Virus record (IMG/VR): IMGVR_UViG_3300036987_000229
Location: 1 to 34,727 of that record
Length of the DNA: 34,727 nt
Source: a virus
Taxonomy: Duplodnaviria; Caudoviricetes
Strand: one strand, 5' to 3'
The notes under the pieces are model-generated. The model saw nothing but the letters and a program-made list of their open reading frames with translations, was not told the origin of the DNA and made no database searches. Of the stretch, positions 3,016 to 34,727 are shown one piece after another. Made by a program: the position numbers and the translations under genes. The first letter of the stretch is position 1. Every line of letters begins with the position of its first letter.

Positions 3016-3022
3016 AATAAAC

Positions 3023-3080
3023 TAACGGCAAAAAATTGTTTGGTTTTTGTTTGGTGGTTTAAAATATTGTTGTATATTTG
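3023..3080. promoter_or_regulatory. Divergent promoter unit: leftward CCGTTA late-type motif plus rightward TATATTTG
   Basis: TAACGG at 3023-3028, 7 nt from GTG at 3015; TATATTTG at 3073-3080. Confidence 0.75.
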
Positions 3081-3093
3081 TTTCAGCAAAACA

Positions 3094-3327
3094 ATGAAAA
3101 TGAAAGCAAAAGAATACTTAAAACAGCACCCCGAAAAGTATTATATGGTTACCCGTGAATTAGGTAAGCCGATATACATTGCCCCGCAAGGAATACAGGG
3201 GTGTAATATCACCGACAAAGAAGCAGAGGCAGAACAATGGGACAGCCTTAGCAATACCGAAACGAGGCTTAAATTTTTTAAAGGGCTTACGGGCTATACA
3301 CAACTTCAATACGAATTAGTAAAATGA
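3094..3327 (+). CDS. Hypothetical small early protein
   Basis: ATG just downstream of TATATTTG promoter; ATGA overlap with next gene. Confidence 0.75.
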   Translation: MKMKAKEYLKQHPEKYYMVTRELGKPIYIAPQGIQGCNITDKEAEAEQWDSLSNTETRLKFFKGLTGYTQLQYELVK

Positions 3328-3968
3328 TTGCATTGTTTGGATGTGAAGAAAGTCAGGAATGCACTAAAGCGTTTAGAGAACGTGGACATGAGGCGTTTAG
3401 TAATGACCTTATAGAATGTTCAGGAGGGCATCCCGAATGGCACCTGCAAATGGACGTTATCGAAGCAATAAAATCAAGGAGATGGGATTTTATTGGGCTG
3501 CATCCAATGTGTACGAAAATTACCTTATCAGGCAATAGAACTTACGGCAGGGGAAAACAAAGACATCAAGAAAGATTGGACGCGGTAGAGTGGACTATTG
3601 GACTTTGGAAACTGGCTTGCCAACATTCTGATAAGGTTTATATGGAAAACCCTATGGGCGCAATGAATGGCGATAAAAGGCTTCCAAAGCCACAGACTAT
3701 ACAGCCTTATTATTTCGGGGATGAATTTCAAAAAACTACTTGCCTATGGCTGTATGGATTAAAACCATTAGTGCATATAGCTAAACCAGATTTGTTTAAT
3801 GATAAGGGCACCCATGTATATAAAGGTGAAATGTCGGTATTTAAAAGTGGCTGTGTGATGCCTAAATGGTATGCAGACTCTTGGAGTCTGCCGGAAAAAG
3901 AACGTAAAAAACTACGCTCAAAAACATTTCCCGGCATCGCCCGCGCAATGTCGGAACAATGGGGTTAA
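3324..3968 (+). CDS. Phage DNA cytosine methyltransferase-like protein
   Basis: 'GCEESQ..AFRERGHEAFSNDL..SGGHPEWH', 'HPMCT', 'ENP', 'KTTCLWL', 'RSKTFPGIARAMSEQWG' match a widespread phage C5-MTase-like family. Confidence 0.7.
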   Translation: MIALFGCEESQECTKAFRERGHEAFSNDLIECSGGHPEWHLQMDVIEAIKSRRWDFIGLHPMCTKITLSGNRTYGRGKQRHQERLDAVEWTIGLWKLACQHSDKVYMENPMGAMNGDKRLPKPQTIQPYYFGDEFQKTTCLWLYGLKPLVHIAKPDLFNDKGTHVYKGEMSVFKSGCVMPKWYADSWSLPEKERKKLRSKTFPGIARAMSEQWG

Positions 3969-5611: not shown

Positions 5612-5669
5612 TAACGGCAAAATATTTTAAAGAAATGTGTTGTGTTTGTGAATATTATTTGTATATTTG
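5612..5669. promoter_or_regulatory. Divergent promoter unit
   Basis: TAACGG 5612-5617; TATATTTG 5662-5669 followed by TGGT-ATG. Confidence 0.75.
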
Positions 5670-5673
5670 TGGT

Positions 5674-5997
5674 ATGGAAAACAAATCAATAACTGAAAAC
5701 GAAGAGTTTAAAAACAACTGGCTTGAGTATTACAAAAACAGTAATCTACTTGCCGCCGAAGAAAAACAAAACCCTCTTGTTAGAAATGGAGTATGGTTGG
5801 TTTATTCTGGTGGTGCAAAATCTTGTCAATCCATCCTGCAAGCAGAGCAGGATAAGGAGATGATTGCTTTTGCGAAATGGTGTGTAAAAGGGCAATGGTG
5901 CGTACTTGGTGATAAATGGATTTGTGATAATAACGGCAGAGAAGCTGATGCAAATGGACTTCTCGACCTATTCAGAAAGGAGCAAGACAATGATTAA
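5674..5997 (+). CDS. Hypothetical early protein, leaderless
   Basis: ATG 4 nt after TATATTTG; the ORF-track upstream extension merely translates the promoter. Confidence 0.75.
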   Translation: MENKSITENEEFKNNWLEYYKNSNLLAAEEKQNPLVRNGVWLVYSGGAKSCQSILQAEQDKEMIAFAKWCVKGQWCVLGDKWICDNNGREADANGLLDLFRKEQDND

Positions 5998-8137: not shown

Positions 8138-8226
8138 CAAAGGTACGTATTTTCAGATAGTTGCAAAAAATGCAAAAGAAATATTAAAAAAGACTTGCAT
8201 AGCATATATATTTTTGCTTATCTTTG
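8138..8226. promoter_or_regulatory. Divergent pair of TAnnTTTG promoters
   Basis: Minus TACCTTTG (8138-8145) 4 nt before ATG 8133; plus TATCTTTG (8219-8226) followed by the AACAAATCAGATAAA leader. Confidence 0.7.
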
Positions 8227-8248
8227 TTTCAACAAATCAGATAAACAA

Positions 8249-8548
8249 ATGGAAAATTTAATTAAAGAACAACTTGGAACTTACACAGCAGATTATCAAA
8301 ACCTGCAACAATCAGTAGATAAACTGAAAGAACAAACCGGATGCACCCAAGTGTGGGTTTGTAAAATATATTCAAAAGCACGTTTGTTTCCAATATTTAA
8401 CGACGGGCAAATTGAATTTATGAAGTCAATATTTGAAACTGATGACTATAGTAGGTTCGACGGAAGTATTGTTGCCGTTCTTGAATCAAAAGAAAGCGAC
8501 TTAAAAGAATTACACAGGCTGTACGATATATACAGTGATGAACTTTAA
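8249..8548 (+). CDS. Hypothetical early protein
   Basis: ATG after promoter and shared leader. Confidence 0.75.
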   Translation: MENLIKEQLGTYTADYQNLQQSVDKLKEQTGCTQVWVCKIYSKARLFPIFNDGQIEFMKSIFETDDYSRFDGSIVAVLESKESDLKELHRLYDIYSDEL

Positions 8549-10525: not shown

Positions 10526-10648
10526 TTACCCGTTTATCAAATCACTAATAAGGTGAATTAGAGTTTTAAAAAATTCCTCTCTTTCTTCACTCGTCATGTG
10601 TTCTGATTTTTCTTGGATTAGTTCGATAATTTCGTTTTCGTCTTTCAT
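10526..10648 (-). CDS. Small acidic protein (40 aa)
   Basis: MKDENEIIELIQEKSEHMTSEEREEFFKTLIHLISDLING read by hand. Confidence 0.5.
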   Translation of the reverse strand: MKDENEIIELIQEKSEHMTSEEREEFFKTLIHLISDLING

Positions 10649-10696
10649 ACTCTTAAATTAACCCAGTTACGAACGGGTAGCGTTTATTTGTTTTAA

Positions 10697-11272
10697 CCCC
10701 GAAGGGCTGCCTTGTTTACCGTATTTTATTTATACAGTTTCGCACAAAGCAATAAGCGTCCCTTTGCTGGCTGTGAACTCCAATAAATGGAAGTCTCTCT
10801 TTGTCTACACCAGCAAAATCATAAAGGGTGGCCTTATCGCTTTTTTAAGCTGGTTTAAGTCCAATGTATCGGTACTTTTATTTTCCCAACACCACGGTCA
10901 TAAGGCGCTTACCCAATATCATAAAATGGCAGGCGGCTGTGCTATTGCATACGACTTTACCGTCCAGTTATCGCGCCTGCCAAAATCATTAACCAACATA
11001 GGCAGGATTTGATACCTGCATGAAATATCCACGTGTAACCGATGGATAAATCTGTCCTTTAACGCTTGGGGGTTACAGCCCATCGTCTGTCACTTAGCGT
11101 ATATTTTCCTTATCTAAAGGCTTCCGCCACTATGTTGGTGTATTGTTGGGTGTTATAGCAGGATTAGAGAGAGCACTATCTCGGACTACTGTTCTGCTTA
11201 AATAGTTGACTAACTAACACCCGCCATATAAAACCCCACTATTTCCCAACTGTGAGGCTAACTATCAATTGC
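10697..11272 (-). ncRNA. Candidate array of structured non-coding RNA domains
   Basis: No credible ORF; TATGTTTG promoter at 11277-11284; seven consecutive stem-closed domains. Confidence 0.6.
10992..11139 (-). ncRNA. Enlarged tRNA-like RNA
   Basis: 10-bp closing stem ACCAACATAG/CTATGTTGGT, TGGCGGAA..TACGC D-arm-like, GCAGG-TATCAAAT-CCTGC T-arm-like. Confidence 0.6.
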
Positions 11273-11325
11273 GATACAAACATACAACAAAAAATCAACT
11301 TACCAAATATTATTTTGATTATTTT

Positions 11326-13220: not shown

Positions 13221-13269
13221 TTGCACCCTACGGGGGAAATCGAACCCCCGTAAACTACCATAGTAGGGT
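13221..13269 (-). ncRNA. Mini tRNA-like element (acceptor stem plus T-arm)
   Basis: ACCCTAC/GTAGGGT stem, GGGGG-TTCGATTT-CCCCC arm, TGGTAG in the short connector, 3' GCAA. Confidence 0.5.
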
Positions 13270-13541
13270 TAACAGGTTGCGGCCTTTACTGCCCACATCG
13301 CAGCATCTTCATAAGCCGTTTGAGCAAGCGAAATAAGGCGCATCTTTTCGCCTGATACCGCTTGTAATACCTCCGGGCTTTTGTCATAGGTTTTGCTGGC
13401 CTCTTCGTTTCTCATAGCCTCGAGGTCGTTAATAATGGCTGCGGTTTTCTGTTTAATTTGGTCAACCGAACCGTTGTTTGAAGGGTTAAATTTAACCCTT
13501 ATTCTTATTTCTCCGACTGTTTCGATTGTATTTTCGCTCAT
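13269..13541 (-). CDS. Acb2/Tad1-like hairpin protein, putative immune-signal sponge
   Basis: 'FNPS..VDQIK..AAII' and 'RLISLAQTAYEDAAMWAVKAAT' motif. Confidence 0.6.
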   Translation of the reverse strand: MSENTIETVGEIRIRVKFNPSNNGSVDQIKQKTAAIINDLEAMRNEEASKTYDKSPEVLQAVSGEKMRLISLAQTAYEDAAMWAVKAATC

Positions 13542-13805: not shown

Positions 13806-14076
13806 GTGTTTTGTAAATAAGGTAAATCAGTTCTGCTATTGCGGTGGTAGCAAAGCCGTGTATTATTGCAACAAAACCATATCCAACATATAGCGAAAAC
13901 GCAAGTCCAAGCCAAAATGCAAGGCATTGTCGGCAATCAAACGGCTTCAGTTTTATTTCGTACTCCGGAATACTAAGCCATTTTGACAGGTATTTTTTTC
14001 CAATGCCCGCTAACTCAAACCCGTCAACAAATGCAAAGGCAGCAAGGGCACAAAGTGTAAGGTGTATTGCTATCAT
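13786..14076 (-). CDS. Membrane protein, DUF1360-like
   Basis: 'KPFDCRQCLAFWLG' with flanking TM helices. Confidence 0.65.
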   Translation of the reverse strand: MIAIHLTLCALAAFAFVDGFELAGIGKKYLSKWLSIPEYEIKLKPFDCRQCLAFWLGLAFSLYVGYGFVAIIHGFATTAIAELIYLIYKTLEKYGE

Positions 14077-14663
14077 ATCGTTAATATAAAGTTAAAATCG
14101 GTAGTATGTCGCAAGGTGTAACCGTGCGAAGTAATAAACGGCAATAGGGTTTCATCAAACGGTAGTCCCAAAGTTGAATGCTCCACGATTAATATTTTCG
14201 GTTTGCAAACCTTTAGTATGTCGTGCAAAATAGTTTTCTCCATGCCCTCAACATCCAACGATAAAAGGCAAGGTGATGGAGAATACCTTAATAGGTCTTT
14301 TACTTTTATGCCGCAAACACTTACAGTACCATTTTCCGACGAAGGCTGCATCCGTATCAACTCCCCGTTATTCCTTTCATCTGGCAACACTTCAATGGTT
14401 TTAACAGGCCAATTATTAGGCAGTATAGCCCCTGCATAAAATTCAGTTTTTGGGCGTTCTTTTGCATACCCCGCTGCATGAACAAAGCTAATATCAATAG
14501 CCGTTCCACTCCAACCTAAGTACTTTTCAAAAGCATAAGTATTGTTATTGTTTTCGTAGTGGTTGCATCCAATATCTAAAAACGTTCCGTTTTCGGGCAA
14601 ATCTAAGTTTTCAAAAATCCATTTGTCTTCGCCGCGCTGGCTGTAAAATTGTTTTGTTTCCAT
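14073..14663 (-). CDS. FkbM-family methyltransferase
   Basis: 'YSQRGED', 'FLDIGC', 'NTYAFEK.LGWSG', 'LLSLDVEGME'. Confidence 0.85.
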   Translation of the reverse strand: METKQFYSQRGEDKWIFENLDLPENGTFLDIGCNHYENNNNTYAFEKYLGWSGTAIDISFVHAAGYAKERPKTEFYAGAILPNNWPVKTIEVLPDERNNGELIRMQPSSENGTVSVCGIKVKDLLRYSPSPCLLSLDVEGMEKTILHDILKVCKPKILIVEHSTLGLPFDETLLPFITSHGYTLRHTTDFNFILTI

Positions 14664-15415
14664 CAGTATTGCGCCCCCTCAGCAAATGGTAGTACTTCTT
14701 CATCCTTATGGGTAGCTTTGATTTTACGGTCAAGCACCGGCCATGGCATCCCCAAAGCGTGAACGGCATCACTTACAAAGTTAGGGTCATCACTTTGTAT
14801 TTGGTTATCGGTAATGTGTGGACCATGCCTGAACCTTAGTTTCTCAAAAACGCTACGGTGTATAAGCGCAAACCCTATATTACCGTGGTGTAACTCAACA
14901 ATCCCATCCCCTAACTCAATTAAACCATGCTTACCGCCAAATACATATTCGGCGTGCTTATGGTCATTGCGCCCCTTCACTTCACCAAACACAATAGGGC
15001 GGTTATACTCGTTTGCGGTATCAACAAACCGCTCCAAAGTATCGGGCGGGCAAGTCATATCGCTGTCTATAAACATCAGATATTCACAACCCAAACCTAA
15101 AGCGGCTTCAATACACATATTACGTGCCATACAAATAGGTACGAGCCTTTGTTGGTCTTGGTCGTAAGCGGGCTTTTTCCACCAAGAACTTTCAAATTCC
15201 CAACAGTCCGTGTGTATATCAATTCCTTTGTCTTCGCTTATCTCTATTGCATTGGTAAGAGGTAAGAACGCTTTTACACCTTGCGGAGACTCAATATTGT
15301 AATACACCACCTTGTTTTCATAAGTTTGATTTACAATACTTTCGTGCGGTATAAGTTGGTTGTGTGCCTTGCGCTTGCAGTGCAAGCAGGCTATTAGTAC
15401 TCGTGGTTGTGTCAT
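14663..15415 (-). CDS. Glycosyltransferase, GT-A fold (GT2-like)
   Basis: 'ARNMCIE', DxD 'FIDSD', 'GFALIHRSVFE', 'SDD..F'. Confidence 0.8.
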   Translation of the reverse strand: MTQPRVLIACLHCKRKAHNQLIPHESIVNQTYENKVVYYNIESPQGVKAFLPLTNAIEISEDKGIDIHTDCWEFESSWWKKPAYDQDQQRLVPICMARNMCIEAALGLGCEYLMFIDSDMTCPPDTLERFVDTANEYNRPIVFGEVKGRNDHKHAEYVFGGKHGLIELGDGIVELHHGNIGFALIHRSVFEKLRFRHGPHITDNQIQSDDPNFVSDAVHALGMPWPVLDRKIKATHKDEEVLPFAEGAQY

Positions 15416-15417
15416 AT

Positions 15418-15741
15418 TTATTCAGTTGCTTTTTTGATTACTTCCCTTGCGGAATTAATTGGTTGTAAAACTTCAAGTAAATCCTCTGTGCTTTGCGCCC
15501 TGTCTTTTGCTTCTATAATCTTTACTAAAGCATCTTTCATTTCGGGTGCAGCGGCTATCAGCTTGGCGTTATAAACATCTGCCTCGTTTATTTTTTTGAC
15601 AGGTGAAATTTGACAAATTGGCGTTGCAAACGGATTATTGGTAACAGGGTGTACCGATAAATTTTCAAATCCATCATGTACATTTTCAAAAACGCCATAT
15701 TTCCATGGCCCCGGTGTGTGTTTAAATTTTATGTTTTCCAT
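15418..15741 (-). CDS. Hypothetical early protein (KHTPGPW family), leaderless
   Basis: TATATTTG-TGAT-ATG; 'KHTPGPW', 'NAKLIAAAPEM'. Confidence 0.8.
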   Translation of the reverse strand: MENIKFKHTPGPWKYGVFENVHDGFENLSVHPVTNNPFATPICQISPVKKINEADVYNAKLIAAAPEMKDALVKIIEAKDRAQSTEDLLEVLQPINSAREVIKKATE

Positions 15742-15776
15742 ATCACAAATATACAATTTATTTCAATATACGCAAA

Positions 15777-16829
15777 CTATTTTTTTCCTGTTAAATCGCA
15801 AAGTGCCTTGTGCCTTTTTTCGGTTTCAATCTTTATATTGTAATATTTATCGCAAACTTTTTTAAGTTCAGCCCCGTAATGTTTTCGCATCTTTGCGCTC
15901 GTCATAAGCGTTTTTAAATGGGTAAACCAAGTATCACGGGTGGCAAACAATACCGCGTCTTTAAACTCGTTTTTATAATATGGTAGGCAATTTGAAGCAA
16001 TCACAGGCACCCCAAAATTACCCGCCTCCAATAGCTTCAGTTCCGATTTGCAGGCGTTAAATTCATTCGCTGCAAGCGGTGCAATAGCCACATCTATTTG
16101 CCGGTAAAATTTTGCATAAGCATCCACGGGTAAAGCGTTCCATAAATTTACATTATGGCTTGCGCACATCAGCCGGTATTGCGCAAAAACCATAACATTG
16201 TTTTGGTCTTGCGGGGCATAGCCAAACAGGTTCATGTTGTAATCTAAGCCCGATTGTGCCAGCTTGCCAAATCCATTGCGAACTACCGGAAAGTCATGTG
16301 TGTGTGTTATTGACCCCGCCCAACCTAACCGTATACCACCATTACGGGGCTGTATATCCTTGTTGCTAAACTGTGGTTGTGTTTTATCAATAGCATTTTT
16401 TATAACCTCAACACGGGCGTTGTGCTGCCTTATCTTTTTTGCGAGTGTGAATATGCTTGCCCAAACCATATCAGCGTTCTCAATGGCAAATAAAGTGCGT
16501 TTATCGGTATTGTGAGCGTACCAATACTCATACAAGATATGTTCTTTGGGCAACTCCCAATAATCGTCAATATCAATCACCATCGGTATGCCCCACTTGC
16601 GGACGGCTTCTAAATCTTCGGCATCCATCCCCCTGTTGGATATTGTGCGGCTCTTTATCACTACATCAAACTCACACTTGTCAGGCAGGTACTTAGAAAA
16701 TGTTACGTTATGCCCGTGCTGTCGGGCAAGGTTAATGCCCGGTACAACGGTACGGTGGTAGTCCACACCGCCCACGCTTTCCAGCGGTCGCGCGGGGTCG
16801 CGCAAGTCACATAGTATTAAAATATTCAT
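15777..16829 (-). CDS. Glycosyltransferase, GT-B fold (GT4-like)
   Basis: 'GVDYHR..P', 'DIDDYW', 'GWAGS.TH..D', 'DVAIAPL..NEFNACKSELKLLEAG..GVPVIAS'. Confidence 0.85.
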   Translation of the reverse strand: MNILILCDLRDPARPLESVGGVDYHRTVVPGINLARQHGHNVTFSKYLPDKCEFDVVIKSRTISNRGMDAEDLEAVRKWGIPMVIDIDDYWELPKEHILYEYWYAHNTDKRTLFAIENADMVWASIFTLAKKIRQHNARVEVIKNAIDKTQPQFSNKDIQPRNGGIRLGWAGSITHTHDFPVVRNGFGKLAQSGLDYNMNLFGYAPQDQNNVMVFAQYRLMCASHNVNLWNALPVDAYAKFYRQIDVAIAPLAANEFNACKSELKLLEAGNFGVPVIASNCLPYYKNEFKDAVLFATRDTWFTHLKTLMTSAKMRKHYGAELKKVCDKYYNIKIETEKRHKALCDLTGKK

Positions 16830-19949: not shown

Positions 19950-20162
19950 TTATCCTTTTGCTTCAATAAATTTTGAGTAGTAATAGTTGTTAAGGGTAAC
20001 AACGGTATTATAAGACGGGCTTTCTATTTTACCACACTCCAATTGAGATAAGTACCCATTTGAAATACCGGTATCGAACTCAACATCTCTAAGTGTTAGG
20101 TATAGTTTTTTTCTTACTGTCTTAAAGTCAACAGGTTTTTTAGGCAATTCTTTCAAATCCAT
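19950..20162 (-). CDS. XRE-family HTH regulator
   Basis: 'LTLRDVE..TGISNGYLSQLECGK...PS'; leaderless after TATATTTA. Confidence 0.85.
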   Translation of the reverse strand: MDLKELPKKPVDFKTVRKKLYLTLRDVEFDTGISNGYLSQLECGKIESPSYNTVVTLNNYYYSKFIEAKG

Positions 20163-22593: not shown

Positions 22594-22913
22594 TATCCCA
22601 ATGGTGTTGTAGCCAGTGCGTGGCCGTGGTTAATACTATCGTAAATTACCGACCTTACATCTACGTCAAATACCATAAACATTACTACCTCACGAGTAGG
22701 GTTTTTGAAGTGTGCGCGAAATAATGCTATTTCGGACGCGTCATTTTCTGATAAGAAGTCCTTAGCCATATCGTTTGCAAGTTCATTTAAACCGCATTCT
22801 ATCGCATCATCAATGGCCTCCAAAGCGGTTACCGTGTCGCGGGTGTCGAACTTATCGCGGATAGCGCGGGATGCTATTTCTTTAAGTTTATCAAACTGTT
22901 TTGTGTTTTCCAT
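22593..22913 (-). CDS. Hypothetical early protein, leaderless
   Basis: TATATTTG-CGAT-ATGGAAAAC. Confidence 0.75.
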   Translation of the reverse strand: MENTKQFDKLKEIASRAIRDKFDTRDTVTALEAIDDAIECGLNELANDMAKDFLSENDASEIALFRAHFKNPTREVVMFMVFDVDVRSVIYDSINHGHALATTPLG

Positions 22914-22981
22914 ATCGCAAATATACAATAAGATTTGAACTTTGCAAATAAAATTTACAGAAATAGTGGGCACTATTAATG

Positions 22982-23003
22982 AAAAAAGCCCCTTGCGGGG
23001 CTT
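22982..23003 (-). terminator. Rho-independent terminator
   Basis: AAGCCCC-GCAA-GGGGCTTTTTT on minus strand. Confidence 0.85.
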
Positions 23004-23036
23004 CCATGGAATAACAAAATCAGATAAAGAATGCAG
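22982..23036 (-). ncRNA. Candidate antisense sRNA to early-gene leaders
   Basis: TATATTTG at 23041-23048, ~55 nt, terminator; contains CATTCTTTATCTGATTTTGTT complementary to AACAAATCAGATAAA(CAA)ATG. Confidence 0.6.
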
Positions 23037-23058
23037 GTTACAAATATACAAAAATTGT

Positions 23059-23340
23059 TTAACTATTAGATTTATTTAAGAATTTTCCTATCACCTCGGT
23101 GTTGTGCCGTATCACCTGCGTACACTCGGATATAGTCTTCACCATTTCTCCCCTATCTTCTTTAAGATAATTATCGAGCTTTGAAGATATTGCATCCAGT
23201 CGGTCAATGTCCCTTTTTTCGCGTTCCTCCGATACTTTTTCGGCGCGGTCAACCTTATTGTACAGGTACATGATTGCCCCGGCCATAAGGGCGAATATGC
23301 CCCCCTGTGTGATATAGCTGGTAAATATTGTTTCCATCAT
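23059..23340 (-). CDS. Putative holin (BhlA/UviB-like)
   Basis: Single N-terminal TM 'TQGGIFALMAGAIMYL' plus charged coiled coil. Confidence 0.55.
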   Translation of the reverse strand: MMETIFTSYITQGGIFALMAGAIMYLYNKVDRAEKVSEEREKRDIDRLDAISSKLDNYLKEDRGEMVKTISECTQVIRHNTEVIGKFLNKSNS

Positions 23341-24154: not shown

Positions 24155-24432
24155 TATTGCGCACTTCCAGACCTTATACCCCACACAGAACCGCTGGTAA
24201 CGGTTACTGCGTTAATAATTTCACCGCTTATTAAGCGGATAACACTACCTTGTTTTAGTGCTGCACCGCTAATGTTACAGGTAGTAACCCCGTTTTGGCC
24301 GTCCGCCCCGGTAAGCACGGATATAACCGCGTCTTCATTAACTGCCAAAAAGGCATATTGTACATCGGTTACCGCGCCTGTGATTAACACAGTACCCGAA
24401 CCACCGATCATTAAACTGGTATCGCCTTGCAT
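24154..24432 (-). CDS. Small structural protein
   Basis: Beta-rich, TAATG-coupled in late operon. Confidence 0.6.
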   Translation of the reverse strand: MQGDTSLMIGGSGTVLITGAVTDVQYAFLAVNEDAVISVLTGADGQNGVTTCNISGAALKQGSVIRLISGEIINAVTVTSGSVWGIRSGSAQ

Positions 24433-25773: not shown

Positions 25774-25780
25774 AATAAAC

Positions 25781-25839
25781 TAACGGGGAAAATATTTTAA
25801 AGAAACATGTTGCGTATACTGAAATAAATTGTATATTTG
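25781..25839. promoter_or_regulatory. Divergent promoter unit
   Basis: TAACGG 25781-25786; TTG-N19-TATATTTG 25832-25839. Confidence 0.75.
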
Positions 25840-25843
25840 TGGT

Positions 25844-26047
25844 ATGGAAAAACTTATTGAAGCATTAAACATTTTTTTGAAGTACGGTAACAAAGATTAT
25901 CCGTTTCATTGCGAGCACGATCAACTTACTATTGATTATGACCCGTCGGAATTTTCTAAAGAGGATTTAGGAAAACTGGCCGAGCTTGGCTTTCATGCCG
26001 ATGAAGACAACAGCGATTTTAAATCGTATAGGTACGGAAGTTGCTAA
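25844..26047 (+). CDS. Hypothetical early protein, leaderless
   Basis: TATATTTG-TGGT-ATG; 'YPFHCEHD', 'YRYGSC'. Confidence 0.75.
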   Translation: MEKLIEALNIFLKYGNKDYPFHCEHDQLTIDYDPSEFSKEDLGKLAELGFHADEDNSDFKSYRYGSC

Positions 26048-28309: not shown

Positions 28310-28317
28310 TAGTAAAC

Positions 28318-28376
28318 TAACGGGGAAAATATTTTTATCTTTTTTCTTGTTTATTTGAAAAATAATTGTATCTTTG
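28318..28376. promoter_or_regulatory. Divergent promoter unit
   Basis: TAACGG 28318-28323; TATCTTTG 28369-28376. Confidence 0.75.
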
Positions 28377-28395
28377 TTTCAACAAATCAGATAAA

Positions 28396-29316
28396 ATGGA
28401 AAAATTTATTTATTTAAGGAATGAAAAATTTGAATGGACTGCATTTGAGTACGATGGAGATTTAAATACAGAACTATCAGAGCATTTTACCAAAATGGAT
28501 ATTGAAATTGGCAACGCTACCATAATCGGCAACGCTACTAAAATCGGATGGCGTACCAAAATCGGCGACGATACTAAAATCGGCAACGCTACTAAAATCG
28601 GCGACGCTACCACAATCGGCAACGCTACCACAATCGGCAACGCTACCATAATCGGCAACGCTACTAAAATCGGATGGCGTACCAAAATCGGCGACGATAC
28701 TAAAATCGGATGGCGTACCACAATCGGCGACGATACTAAAATCGGCAACGCTACCATAATCGGCGACGCTACCATAATCGGCAACGCTACTAAAATCGGC
28801 GACGCTACCACAATCGGCAACGCTACCACAATCGGCAACGCTACTAAAATCGGATGGCGTACCACAATCGGCGACGATACTAAAATCGGCAACGCTACTA
28901 AAATCGGCGACGCTACCACAATCGGCAACGCTACCACAATCGGCAACGCTACCACAATCGGCAACGCTACTAAAATCGGATGGCGTACCACAATCGGCGA
29001 CGATACTAAAATCGGCAACGCTACCATAATCGGCGACGCTACCATAATCGGCAACGAATTATGTTTTGGAATTAGGTCTATTGTTTCCGATAACACAAAA
29101 TTAATTACTGGGCTTTTTATAAAAGGTTCACTCCATGCTGTTACTTACGTAGGTAATGGTAAGGTATCAATTGGGTGCTATTGCTTAACATTTAAGGAAT
29201 GGCGGGATTCAGGATTAGTAATCGCTGATACCGAAGAATACGACGAAACAACCATTGAAGAATATCGTTTTTATGTGGATTTATGTGAAAAATTTCATAA
29301 CCAAAATTATAAGTAA
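28396..29316 (+). CDS. Hexapeptide-repeat (left-handed beta-helix) protein
   Basis: 30 xxT(I/K/T)IG repeats; C-terminal 'VSIGC...TFKEW' domain. Confidence 0.85.
   Translation: MEKFIYLRNEKFEWTAFEYDGDLNTELSEHFTKMDIEIGNATIIGNATKIGWRTKIGDDTKIGNATKIGDATTIGNATTIGNATIIGNATKIGWRTKIGDDTKIGWRTTIGDDTKIGNATIIGDATIIGNATKIGDATTIGNATTIGNATKIGWRTTIGDDTKIGNATKIGDATTIGNATTIGNATTIGNATKIGWRTTIGDDTKIGNATIIGDATIIGNELCFGIRSIVSDNTKLITGLFIKGSLHAVTYVGNGKVSIGCYCLTFKEWRDSGLVIADTEEYDETTIEEYRFYVDLCEKFHNQNYK
28513..29052 (+). repeat. 30 x 18-bp coding tandem repeat
   Basis: Consensus AACGCTAC(C/T)A(A/C/T)AATCGGC with eight recurring variants. Confidence 0.95.
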
Positions 29317-32212: not shown

Positions 32213-32271
32213 TAACGCCATAAAATATTTTATGGCGATTGTTGTAAGTTTGGAATATTGTTGTATTTTTG
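32213..32271. promoter_or_regulatory. Divergent promoter unit with 22-bp palindrome
   Basis: TAACGC 32213-32218; CGCCATAAAATATTTTATGGCG 32216-32237; TATTTTTG 32264-32271. Confidence 0.7.
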
Positions 32272-32503
32272 TTTCAACAAATCGGATAAACAAATGAAAA
32301 TAGTACTAAATTTTGAAAACGGAACATCAACTACAACAGACGTAGCAAACTACTTTACAAGTGAAATGATTACCGATTGCTTTGTTGGCAAAGACCACAA
32401 AGGCTATGGTTTTGTAAAAAGCTGGGTAAAACACGGATAAAAATAAATAACGTATTCCTGACATCGGGAATACGTTATTACACCCCGCGCCCGTCGGGGA
32501 ATA
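32261..32503. repeat. ~240-bp direct repeat, copy A (promoter, gene, hairpin)
   Basis: Matches 34620-34727 and 1-127. Confidence 0.95.
32294..32440 (+). CDS. Small hypothetical early protein (48 aa), duplicated
   Basis: ATG after promoter and shared leader; second copy starts at 34653. Confidence 0.7.
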   Translation: MKIVLNFENGTSTTTDVANYFTSEMITDCFVGKDHKGYGFVKSWVKHG

Positions 32504-32507
32504 AGAG

Positions 32508-34565
32508 CTAAACTACAACCGTAGCCCCGCGCCTGCGTTCAGCAGCACGTAGATTGGCTTTGCGTAAATCGCGTTCCGATATATCTACATTTACATTCAC
32601 GTTTGTTGTGCCGCCCACAGTGCTTACTGCTTGTATTTTATCGGGAGCAGCAATAACTCCCGACGGCGGCTGTATGTTAGAACTATGGCCACTACTCAAC
32701 ACCTGTCTTATCTTACCCGCCGTAGCTAATATATTTGCGGCTACGGTAGCGTATTTGATAGCCGCCGCAATCGGTTCGGGCGTAGTGCCATACGTTGCCG
32801 CAAGTGCCGAACTTAAAGCGCGGGCAGTATCAATACCAATCTGCACCAGTGCCAAAGCCTTTTGTGTATCGGTAAGCCCTTTGCCTTCTACTGCTACAAT
32901 CTGCGACAGGTTACCGAATACGCTTGCGGTTTGGGCGTACAATTCCTGCCTTGCTGAAAATATATCTTTTTCCCTTTGCAGCCTTTGTTCTTCGCTGTCC
33001 GTAGCCGCCTCGTTTGTTGAGGTTATTACAGCAAGATACTGCTGATACATCTTCGCATCAGTTTCTTTAGAAATGTCATATTTTAACGCGTTCAGAAATG
33101 ATTGGGGGTTTTTTTGAGGGTCAAATTCATCTGATAGCCTTTTGTTTCCGTCGATTACAAATTTGAAAAAACTATCAATATCCCCCTTCATTTTTGGGAA
33201 CTCTTCACGTATTGTTTTGGCTTGCTTTTCTACCGTTTTTGTGAAGCCCTGCAAAGGTTCAGCACTTAGTTGCGACAGGTCACCAAATATTTTAGACTGC
33301 TCTGTATTTAGGTTGTTGAGTTCATCTAACAGAGCCTCCATTTCACCCGTAATAAATACTGAATACCCTTCGGCTGATTTTGCAGGTATTTCAAACAACC
33401 TATTCCCGAACGCATCAAAACTCTCTTCAATTTTAGCCCCCTGTTTTTCAAACGTGCTTATAATTTCTTGTATGCGTTTTTCAATCCCCCCCGCAATTTC
33501 TTCTTTCGCTTGCGCCAACACCTTTGCCCGTATTTTTTCTACTATCTTACCGTATGCCTCGGCAACCAGCCCCGCAAACTTTGCTTCGTCCTTAAGGTTT
33601 TGAATAGTAATCCCGTATTTAGAGTTAATTTCATCAAGTAGGTCTTTCCGTTCTTTGCTTGTAGAGTTAGTTTCAAGCAACCTATCGGTAAGCCTCCGTA
33701 ACTCTACTATTTCACCGGCATACAGTTCGTTTGTACGCGATATAGCTTCGTTATTACGCTTTTGCGCTTCGGTTAATTCTACTGTTGCATCACTACTATT
33801 AGATAGCCATTCAACAATTTGTGGTAAGAACGTAACGGCCAATAAGGCCAGCCCAACCCCAGATGCTGCTAAAACAGTATTAAAAGTAGCAGTGGATAGT
33901 GTGCTTGCTTTTACCGCGCTGTTATATAGATTCTGCGCCGTGGTGGTAAGGAATATCCGCGCCGCGCTATCCTTTTGCAAGTTACCCTGTATCTGTTGCA
34001 AGCTGTTAAGGATAAGCATTGTAGCATTTACTTGCGTCAATACTTTGTCCAGTTCTTTACTTTGCCCGCCAAATAGGGCCATTGCCCCCTGCACCGCACC
34101 AAACCCGCTTGTAACAAGAGATAATGAACCTATTACGCCCGCCAAAGCCTGCTCACCTAAACTATCTTTAAATAACTTAGACGTGTTGGTGGCTGCTTCA
34201 ATTTGCCCCGTCAAATCCCCGGCCTGCTTTGCAAGATTGATGTAGGCAGGCGAGCCTTCCTCCATAGTTGCAAGCTCTTCAATAATCTTGCGTAGCTGTG
34301 TTTTTAAAGGTATTGCGGCTTTTTCAGCTTTTTCTATCCCCCCGGCAAGCTCTTTTGTTTCATTTGTCGTGCCCTTTATTTGCGCCTGCAAAGTTTCCAT
34401 TTGCTTTGCCAGCCCCTTACCAAACGCGCTCTTTTTTTCCGATTCGTTCAGTTTTAGATATTGCGCCGCCGTTTCGCGAAGTTCAGCGTTCAGCTTGTCT
34501 AACTGGTTTGCCGCGTCCTCTGCGTTGGTGTCAACAGTAATTTTTATAGCTTCCTCGATTGCCAT
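32508..34565 (-). CDS. Tape measure protein
   Basis: Ala-rich helical/coiled-coil 685 aa; 'GFGAVQGAMALFG'. Confidence 0.8.
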   Translation of the reverse strand: MAIEEAIKITVDTNAEDAANQLDKLNAELRETAAQYLKLNESEKKSAFGKGLAKQMETLQAQIKGTTNETKELAGGIEKAEKAAIPLKTQLRKIIEELATMEEGSPAYINLAKQAGDLTGQIEAATNTSKLFKDSLGEQALAGVIGSLSLVTSGFGAVQGAMALFGGQSKELDKVLTQVNATMLILNSLQQIQGNLQKDSAARIFLTTTAQNLYNSAVKASTLSTATFNTVLAASGVGLALLAVTFLPQIVEWLSNSSDATVELTEAQKRNNEAISRTNELYAGEIVELRRLTDRLLETNSTSKERKDLLDEINSKYGITIQNLKDEAKFAGLVAEAYGKIVEKIRAKVLAQAKEEIAGGIEKRIQEIISTFEKQGAKIEESFDAFGNRLFEIPAKSAEGYSVFITGEMEALLDELNNLNTEQSKIFGDLSQLSAEPLQGFTKTVEKQAKTIREEFPKMKGDIDSFFKFVIDGNKRLSDEFDPQKNPQSFLNALKYDISKETDAKMYQQYLAVITSTNEAATDSEEQRLQREKDIFSARQELYAQTASVFGNLSQIVAVEGKGLTDTQKALALVQIGIDTARALSSALAATYGTTPEPIAAAIKYATVAANILATAGKIRQVLSSGHSSNIQPPSGVIAAPDKIQAVSTVGGTTNVNVNVDISERDLRKANLRAAERRRGATVVV

Positions 34566-34572
34566 ATTGAAT

Positions 34573-34630
34573 TAACGGTATAAAATTGTTTGGTTTTTTC
34601 TTGTTTATTTGAAAAATAATTGTATTTTTG
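34573..34630. promoter_or_regulatory. Divergent promoter unit
   Basis: TAACGG 34573-34578, 7 nt from ATG 34565; TATTTTTG 34623-34630. Confidence 0.75.
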
Positions 34631-34727
34631 TTTCAACAAATCGGATAAACAAATGAAAATAGTACTAAATTTTGAAAACGGAACATCAACTACAACAGAC
34701 GTAGCAAACTACTTTACAAGTGAAATG
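34620..34727. repeat. Left part of repeat copy B (partial duplicate gene from 34653)
   Basis: Identical to 32261-32368. Confidence 0.95.

Follow-up and report, generated by a model that had tools for sequence, protein, structure and literature searches.

In Bacteroides thetaiotaomicron, the small RNAs FopS (Rfam RF04319) and GibS are described as carrying a single-stranded seed before the terminator, which binds to start-codon regions (PMC11697453, PMC7366714), and FopS-10 is reported to block translation in vitro (PMC11697453). The same work reports a FopS sequence in one Caudovirales phage (PMC11697453). Among phages, the c4 RNA of P1/P7 is described as targeting the ant mRNA by sequences that likely reside in loops of a structured RNA, with a role in immunity (PMC12197685). 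A related pattern is the SAS of Cluster K mycobacteriophages, a short asymmetric tag located just before the start codons of non-structural genes (PMC3203893; contrasted in PMC4351075). In four of these genomes one inverted copy lies away from gene starts, and the authors left it open whether RNA or a protein is the partner of the tag (PMC3203893). In the literature covered, in which subscription papers are thinly represented, we found no phage RNA shown to repress a set of its own early genes via a common leader.

Here, we describe a non-coding stretch of 55 bases on the minus strand of a phage genome, which is complementary to the predicted first bases of cassettes in the same genome and is therefore likely a small RNA that would block their translation jointly. 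The window, that is the whole stretch of 34,727 bases analysed, corresponds to a record rated complete from an uncultured Bacteroidota-type phage with a G+C content of 41%, and its sequence is present in a groundwater DNA run, possibly its source, while no RNA run was among those listed for it. According to profile searches with the ORFs, the minus strand carries the genes for terminase, portal, head protease, a capsid-like protein and tape measure, as well as recombination and replication genes. Dispersed among them are nine cassettes of small genes, each preceded by one promoter of the form TTG-N19-21-TAnnTTTG, which is the described consensus of the Bacteroidota primary sigma factor (PMC6847099, PMC7366714). 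Because of these host-type promoters and their small uncharacterised genes, the cassettes are presumed to be early.

The unit comprises the following features, together with the gene upstream of it:

23041..23051, minus strand: Bacteroidota-type -7 box TTG-TATATTTG without a -33 TTG (-7 box proper 23041-23048)
23013..23033, minus strand: seed 1, anti-AUG and anti-leader, including the 12-nt core (23017-23028); no pairing predicted within the free 55-mer
23006..23015, minus strand: seed 2, complement of the leaderless-cassette starts AUGGAAAA; overlaps the palindrome 23002-23011
22982..23003, minus strand: intrinsic terminator hairpin GCCCC-GCAA-GGGGC (GCAA loop) followed by U6; predicted to form the 3′ terminus of both the late operon and the RNA
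23059..23340, minus strand: holin-like gene, 93 aa

The -7 element, the hairpin with its U6 tract, the copies of the core and the ATGGAAAA starts were all found where the preliminary description had placed them. That description had also considered, besides a primary transcript, an origin by cleavage of the late holin transcript. The unit indeed lies in the 3′-UTR of the last gene of a late operon, with the hairpin 55 nt past the stop codon, but the assignment as a holin is based on a weak match to PHROG 2429 (E 3.5e-4). The terminator was detected by a custom script and missed by a standard terminator scan. It is preceded by a U-rich stretch of 33 nt that begins after the -7 box and is mostly unpaired in the predicted fold, an arrangement of single-stranded stretch and terminator as in FopS. 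Moreover, the unit shares its terminator with the upstream mRNA, as do small RNAs derived from 3′-UTRs. Folding predicts an open seed for the free 55-mer and a partly paired one within a longer mRNA. The unit is present in a single copy, no such stretch accompanies the other four terminators found in the window, and no variants of the unit were observed in two DNA runs, one of them possibly the source of this DNA.

The sequence TTG-TATATTTG begins 10 nt past the stop codon of the holin-like gene on the minus strand. This 11-mer occurs six times in the genome (0.11 expected), and the other five copies represent cassette promoters with a -33 TTG. In agreement with the preliminary description, the copy of the unit has none, and its would-be -33 position falls within the end of the holin-like gene. 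A spacer of 4-5 nt places the +1 on a pyrimidine (23036 or 23035), with no purine at the usual +1. Given this pyrimidine and the missing -33 element, we regard the promoter as weak or atypical; absence of the -33 element is described as common in Flavobacterium (PMC6847099), and further background on Flavobacterium UTRs is provided in PMC9723704. Downstream of the terminator and ahead of the 22925 promoter lies an inverted repeat of 7 bp with a 2-nt spacer (22963-22978), possibly an operator of the replication block.

The cassettes regarded as putative targets are located as follows:

8219..8256, plus strand: promoter, 18-nt leader and ATGGAAAA start; gene 8249-8548
28369..28403, plus strand: promoter, 15-nt leader and ATGGAAAA start; hexapeptide-repeat gene 28396-29316; ranks best among the targets
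32264..32296, plus strand: cassette whose leader has the A>G variant; gene 32294-32440
34623..34655, plus strand: duplicate of the 32264 cassette; gene crosses the contig end
5662..5698, plus strand: leaderless cassette; 5′ end predicted to pair in a single register with seed 2 plus part of seed 1
22889..22925, minus strand: leaderless cassette immediately downstream of the unit; its gene opens the recombination/replication block
15717..15753, minus strand: leaderless cassette, predicted as a weak target (rank 20 of 50)
25832..25868, plus strand: leaderless cassette, predicted as a weak target (rank 23 of 50)
3073..3109, plus strand: cassette with a short variant leader (3085), weak predicted target, rank 21 of 50

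The 12-nt core AAATCRGATAAA occurs five times in the genome as compared to a mean of 0.03 in 100 shuffles, namely in the leaders at 8234, 28384, 32279 and 34638 and as an inverted copy at 23017. All four plus-strand leaders named in the preliminary description were thus located; however, the cassettes at 32276 and 34635 represent one duplication, with a contig depth of 18.4 as compared to about 10.8 elsewhere (~2x), and the number of independent leaders is therefore three. The duplication comprises the whole cassette and a palindromic terminator (32239-32511, and 34598-34727 plus 1-135), flanks the tape-measure gene and is supported by depth as two copies, with a contig join 8 nt shorter than the first copy. 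Likewise, the specific part of the leader is TCRGATAAA, and the AACAAA at its start is generic, since TTTG-TTTC-AACAAA is a common promoter start in Bacteroidota phages.

In the leaderless cassettes at 5674, 25844, 22913 and 15741, ATGGAAAA lies 4 nt after the -7 box. It is found at the start of six of 62 ORFs here as compared to nine of 1,211 in 21 other phage records, and at none of the eight leaderless-type starts of those records, though a possible common ancestry of the four leaderless cassettes lowers the weight of the count. Minus-strand terminators are present at the 3′ end of three of the four leadered cassettes (29366, 32476 and 100), so that late read-through would not reach these as cis-antisense RNA. 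Two leaderless cassettes are co-directional with the late genes, and read-through would therefore not silence them in cis either.

In addition, a motif on the minus strand, AAA(C/T)A(A/T)TTTT-N-(C/G)CGTTA, lies at the back of six out of seven plus-strand cassette promoters, with copies at 3020-3041, 5612-5628, 25780-25798, 28317-28335, 32213-32231 and 34573-34591. The motif stops just ahead of the divergent late gene's start codon and may be a late promoter or leader; the antisense unit contains only its AAACAATTTT half. Several further features of the genome were observed. GATC occurs only four times and ATCGAT twice in the 34.7 kb, which suggests avoidance of restriction sites, and one early cassette contains a DNA methyltransferase gene (3324-3968). 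Two glycosyltransferases and an FkbM methyltransferase are encoded at 14073-16829. The protein encoded by 13269-13541 on the minus strand, just upstream of the small terminase gene, contains an Acb2/Tad1 hairpin domain (PF24729, E 1.4e-10) and is likely an anti-defence nucleotide sponge. Finally, a full Bacteroidota promoter at 11284 on the minus strand is followed by about 700 nt without a convincing gene (10540-11284), the predicted fold of which is far better than that of shuffled sequences (z -5.2, 0/20) and contains tRNA-like arms by eye; ARAGORN and Rfam returned no match for this region, which is a candidate for a large structured RNA.

The pairing potential of the unit was scored by RNAduplex, by co-folding and by a local-alignment score. 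In a reverse scan, every 33-nt window of the genome was compared with the first 25 nt of eight independent cassettes. Here the unit ranked first of 22,851 windows, with a summed score of -100.5 as compared to a mean of -40.2 (sd 11.7) and -89.6 for the next site. When the three independent leaders were considered alone, none of 22,830 other windows equalled the unit; with the four leaderless starts alone, 24 of 22,830 did so. Since the unit had first been noticed via the leader, the latter result provides separate support for seed 2, which the preliminary description had called speculative. For the 3085 cassette alone, 826 of 22,830 windows pair equally well. One alternative is that a U-rich 3′-UTR pairs loosely and by chance with A-rich start regions, given that U-rich sequences pair promiscuously and that start regions in Bacteroidota are described as A-rich (PMC6847099). 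However, shuffles of the unit that preserve its composition average -55.9 and none of 2,000 attains -100.5, and the core is expected 0.03 times per genome. Chance, which is largely excluded for seed 1, is thus an extremely improbable explanation. The unit is a real, non-random feature, and these statistics within the genome support the earlier proposal of an antisense unit aimed at the 5′ ends of the cassettes.

The individual duplexes are AU-rich and weak (-9.6 to -15.9 kcal/mol). A forward scan by plain duplex energy placed no cassette within the best 40 of 1,132 sites, and the length of helices with G:U pairs allowed did not separate the cassettes from other genes (p=0.57). When the cost of opening structure was charged by co-folding, the six best of 50 start regions were all cassettes, though rank 7 follows only 0.1 kcal/mol behind rank 6 and three cassettes are found at ranks 20, 21 and 23. 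The difference between cassettes and other starts (8 versus 41) was significant (Mann-Whitney p=3e-4). The longest pure Watson-Crick helix comprises 12 bp for 8231 and 28381. For the duplicated pair it comprises 6 bp, or 12 with one G:U, in line with the claim that the A>G variant is still paired.

By inspection, the complementarity ends at the predicted +1 in both classes of cassettes and excludes the promoter DNA, as expected if pairing occurs at the level of RNA. The A/G variation lies exactly at the centre of the odd palindrome ATC-N-GAT, and the phage encodes an HTH protein (19950-20162), which could bind such an element as a DNA operator just downstream of promoters in either orientation. 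Yet the similarity runs asymmetrically past the palindrome, to the +1 and to the AUG, ATC-N-GAT is missing from five of the nine cassettes, and ten of its 15 copies are located elsewhere, five of them in the hexapeptide-repeat gene. An operator would also leave unexplained seed 2 and a promoter that reaches a terminator after ~35 nt, and we consider it highly unlikely.

Another possibility is that the unit is a relic, either of a plus-strand element consisting of hairpin, leader and ATG or of an inverted cassette start that has lost its gene and promoter. Read on the plus strand, the unit consists of a hairpin, ATGGAA, leader and ATG, and in other phages several apparent anti-leader units proved to be genuine gene starts of the opposite strand behind a hairpin (L536, 69 aa; L471, 167 aa; L468, 66 aa). 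However, the strand opposite the unit lacks an upstream promoter and contains ORFs of only 12 and 2 codons, and no hairpin lies ahead of the leader in any of the four leadered cassettes here. Moreover, the 12-nt core is intact, both flanks end at borders set by predicted transcripts, and the minus-strand -7 box is only 7 nt off. A relic is therefore rather improbable, albeit less so than an operator.

We favour the reading that the unit encodes a trans-acting anti-start RNA directed against the early cassettes of the phage itself, to which we assign a probability of roughly 0.65, and consider it a good candidate for such an RNA with two seeds. The RNA of ~55 nt would be freed from the late transcript's 3′ end, expressed from the weak -7 promoter, or both, and would form duplexes with the initial 15-25 bases of the cassette mRNAs, thereby blocking translation initiation. 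Seed 1 would cover the leader and the AUG of the four leadered cassettes. Seed 2 would cover the AUGGAA at the 5′ ends of leaderless mRNAs, for which the predicted pairing is convincing for 5674 and 22913 and weak for 15741 and 25844. Upon an increase in late transcription, cassettes with still-active host-type promoters, including the first gene of the replication block, would consequently be translated less.

A search of viral contigs with the DUF6712 protein revealed no close relatives, and the capsid protein had no match among annotated phages. In viral contigs, the capsid relatives among the matches listed show only 35-45% identity. Gene clusters with 52-59% identity were found in three metagenome contigs and six genome-collection loci, and related proteins with 57-97% identity exist. 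None of the eight such clusters examined (5-21 kb each) contained cassettes of this kind. Capsid-module genes with 52-59% identity are located inside bacterial genome contigs (L224 and L304-L309), four of which bear Bacteroidia in their title. Within the five genomes searched, a distance of ~24-57 kb separates the terminase from the capsid gene and the order of genes is rearranged; these modules are possibly domesticated or degraded prophages.

The combination of promoter and leader is found as an identical 27-32-mer, in one copy each, in three phages (G001, G002 and G003), which weakens the earlier idea of a standardised address tag. These are unrelated to the window phage: with 17 proteins tested, the terminase shows 26% identity in G001 and G002, and one other protein 35% in G003. 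The two complete phages, G001 and G002, contain no exact inverted copy of the leader, which means that the leader can exist without this RNA.

Pre-terminator U-rich stretches with CAU, with or without a -7 box of their own, are frequent in the Bacteroidota phages examined, namely 19 records with 35-40% capsid identity as well as G001 and G002. Several of them show a FopS-like UUUUCAUAG front end, and one such locus shows weak similarity to the FopS model (25.2 bits at a cut-off of 56, E 1.1). The unit could accordingly be a general anti-start-codon RNA like FopS, acting mainly on host mRNAs or broadly on A-rich starts, with the match to the phage leaders partial or secondary, and several internal phage genes do score -13 to -14 kcal/mol with it. 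However, the specific part of the core corresponds to the sequence of the phage leaders. In five Bacteroidia genomes (~19.5 Mb), which are not known hosts, the core is followed by an ATG within 6 nt only once. In addition, RF04319 is not among the 13 Rfam matches at E<=10 for 22900-23120. A host-directed RNA is therefore unlikely as well, though the alternative we take most seriously.

A search for the pattern of a -7 box plus an anti-leader yielded 120 loci, none with a terminator according to that script, and these were treated as chance. G001 and G002 each contain a unit consisting of a promoter, a small hairpin, a conserved U/G-rich stretch of 20 nt and a terminator (44586 and 18437, respectively, both on the minus strand; L448 and L450), which may represent another orphan small-RNA gene common to two related phages. 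The best partner of the G002 unit is a single leader at 24186. As counterparts of the window unit both were rejected, since their sequences differ and they have no clear set of multiple leader targets.

We also asked whether such stretches in other lineages fit their own genome better than others. With all start regions, the own genome ranked first for 10 of 86 terminator-adjacent stretches and for 19 of 264 controls, which is no clear excess, and tests of this type were either negative or confounded by composition. A test with eight clusters (p=0.002) was discarded because two of its top matches were gene starts on the opposite strand. After removal of 21 of 127 terminators as cis, a final test with stricter filters kept 21 representatives. 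For 45-mers next to terminators in 20 lineages, the window excluded, the fit to the promoter-led leaders of the same lineage exceeded that to the leaders of others (mean z 0.73, p=0.002), though this test was post hoc, designed after candidates had been seen, and the last of several scoring schemes. The controls gave p=0.26 (sense) and p=0.83 (downstream), and eight random controls ranged from -0.03 to 0.66. The first rank was reached by only three of the 20 lineages. No reciprocal preference for the own genome was seen in six pairs of related phages.

Among five hand-picked analogues, three passed the reverse scan, with 7 of 2,719 (G030/L492), 1 of 4,054 (G010) and 0 of 3,462 (G027) better windows, and two failed (612 of 4,284 and 69 of 5,656). 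G030 contains one leader in 11 copies together with a matching 3′-UTR stretch, and the unit of G010 resembles that of the window in that its -7 box lacks a -33 TTG at the usual spacing. As a separate observation, in some Bacteroidota phages a GC-rich hairpin directly precedes an internal leader and start codon (L468, L471 and L496/L536), a layout that mimics a terminator plus anti-leader on the other strand and represents a trap for findings of this kind.

A wider reading appears possible but doubtful to us. According to this reading, an RNA from a late 3′-UTR with two tandem seeds would serve as the master off-switch of a dispersed early regulon, the cassettes of which are tagged in two ways, by a common leader or by the common first eight coding bases of leaderless mRNAs. 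Given the identical leader in unrelated phages, the RNA would silence a cassette of co-infecting competitors, too. Retargeted FopS-like RNAs might then provide a general early-to-late switch in Bacteroidota phages as well as the missing partner of SAS-type tags.

If the proposed function is correct, one short RNA would turn down scattered early genes on host-type promoters with neither a repressor nor a sigma switch. This control would operate without Shine-Dalgarno sequences and also on leaderless mRNAs, and it would extend the design of FopS and GibS from host metabolism to the timing of phage development.

With regard to known RNAs, no match to an Rfam model reached threshold in the window, nor in 7 large and 20 small loci from elsewhere. 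The Flavo-1 motif (RF01705), described as an unrelated structured motif in the supplement of PMC2864571, was rejected, and its model gave no match in any Rfam scan. As far as the cited reports describe them, FopS and GibS are similar to the unit in phylum, promoter type, a long AU-rich seed and pairing predicted to span the start codons of several first-in-operon mRNAs. The unit differs from them in its seed and lacks the R1 front end, the 5′ end of the sequences in the published primer table. It is a single copy, whereas FopS is described as a multicopy paralogous family with RbpB as a binding partner, its predicted targets are the cassettes of the phage rather than glycan-use operons of the host, and its two tandem seeds, one of them for leaderless mRNAs, have no parallel in the accounts of FopS and GibS. 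Judged by sequence and analogy, the unit may thus work like FopS and GibS, yet it is not a member of the family. As with c4, a phage-encoded RNA would act on phage mRNA; c4 is described as pairing near the ribosome-binding site and blocking translation. In contrast to the account of c4, the unit is unstructured save for the terminator, its seed is predicted to be linear, and it matches up to nine dispersed cassettes. The C4 model of Rfam does not match the unit region, neither an antirepressor nor an integrase was found among the 52 ORFs scanned, and the unit is located behind a holin-like gene and not in an immI-type region.

The closest published pattern to the unit and its leader tags is the SAS, which likewise combines a repeated tag with a lone inverted copy. 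As described, the SAS differs from the phage leader in its Shine-Dalgarno core and in the host phylum, and the passages of PMC3203893 on the inverted copy describe neither a promoter nor a terminator around it. If the proposed function is correct, it would also point to a direct way of testing the unexplained SAS tags of the Cluster K mycobacteriophages, for which a lone inverted copy was reported.
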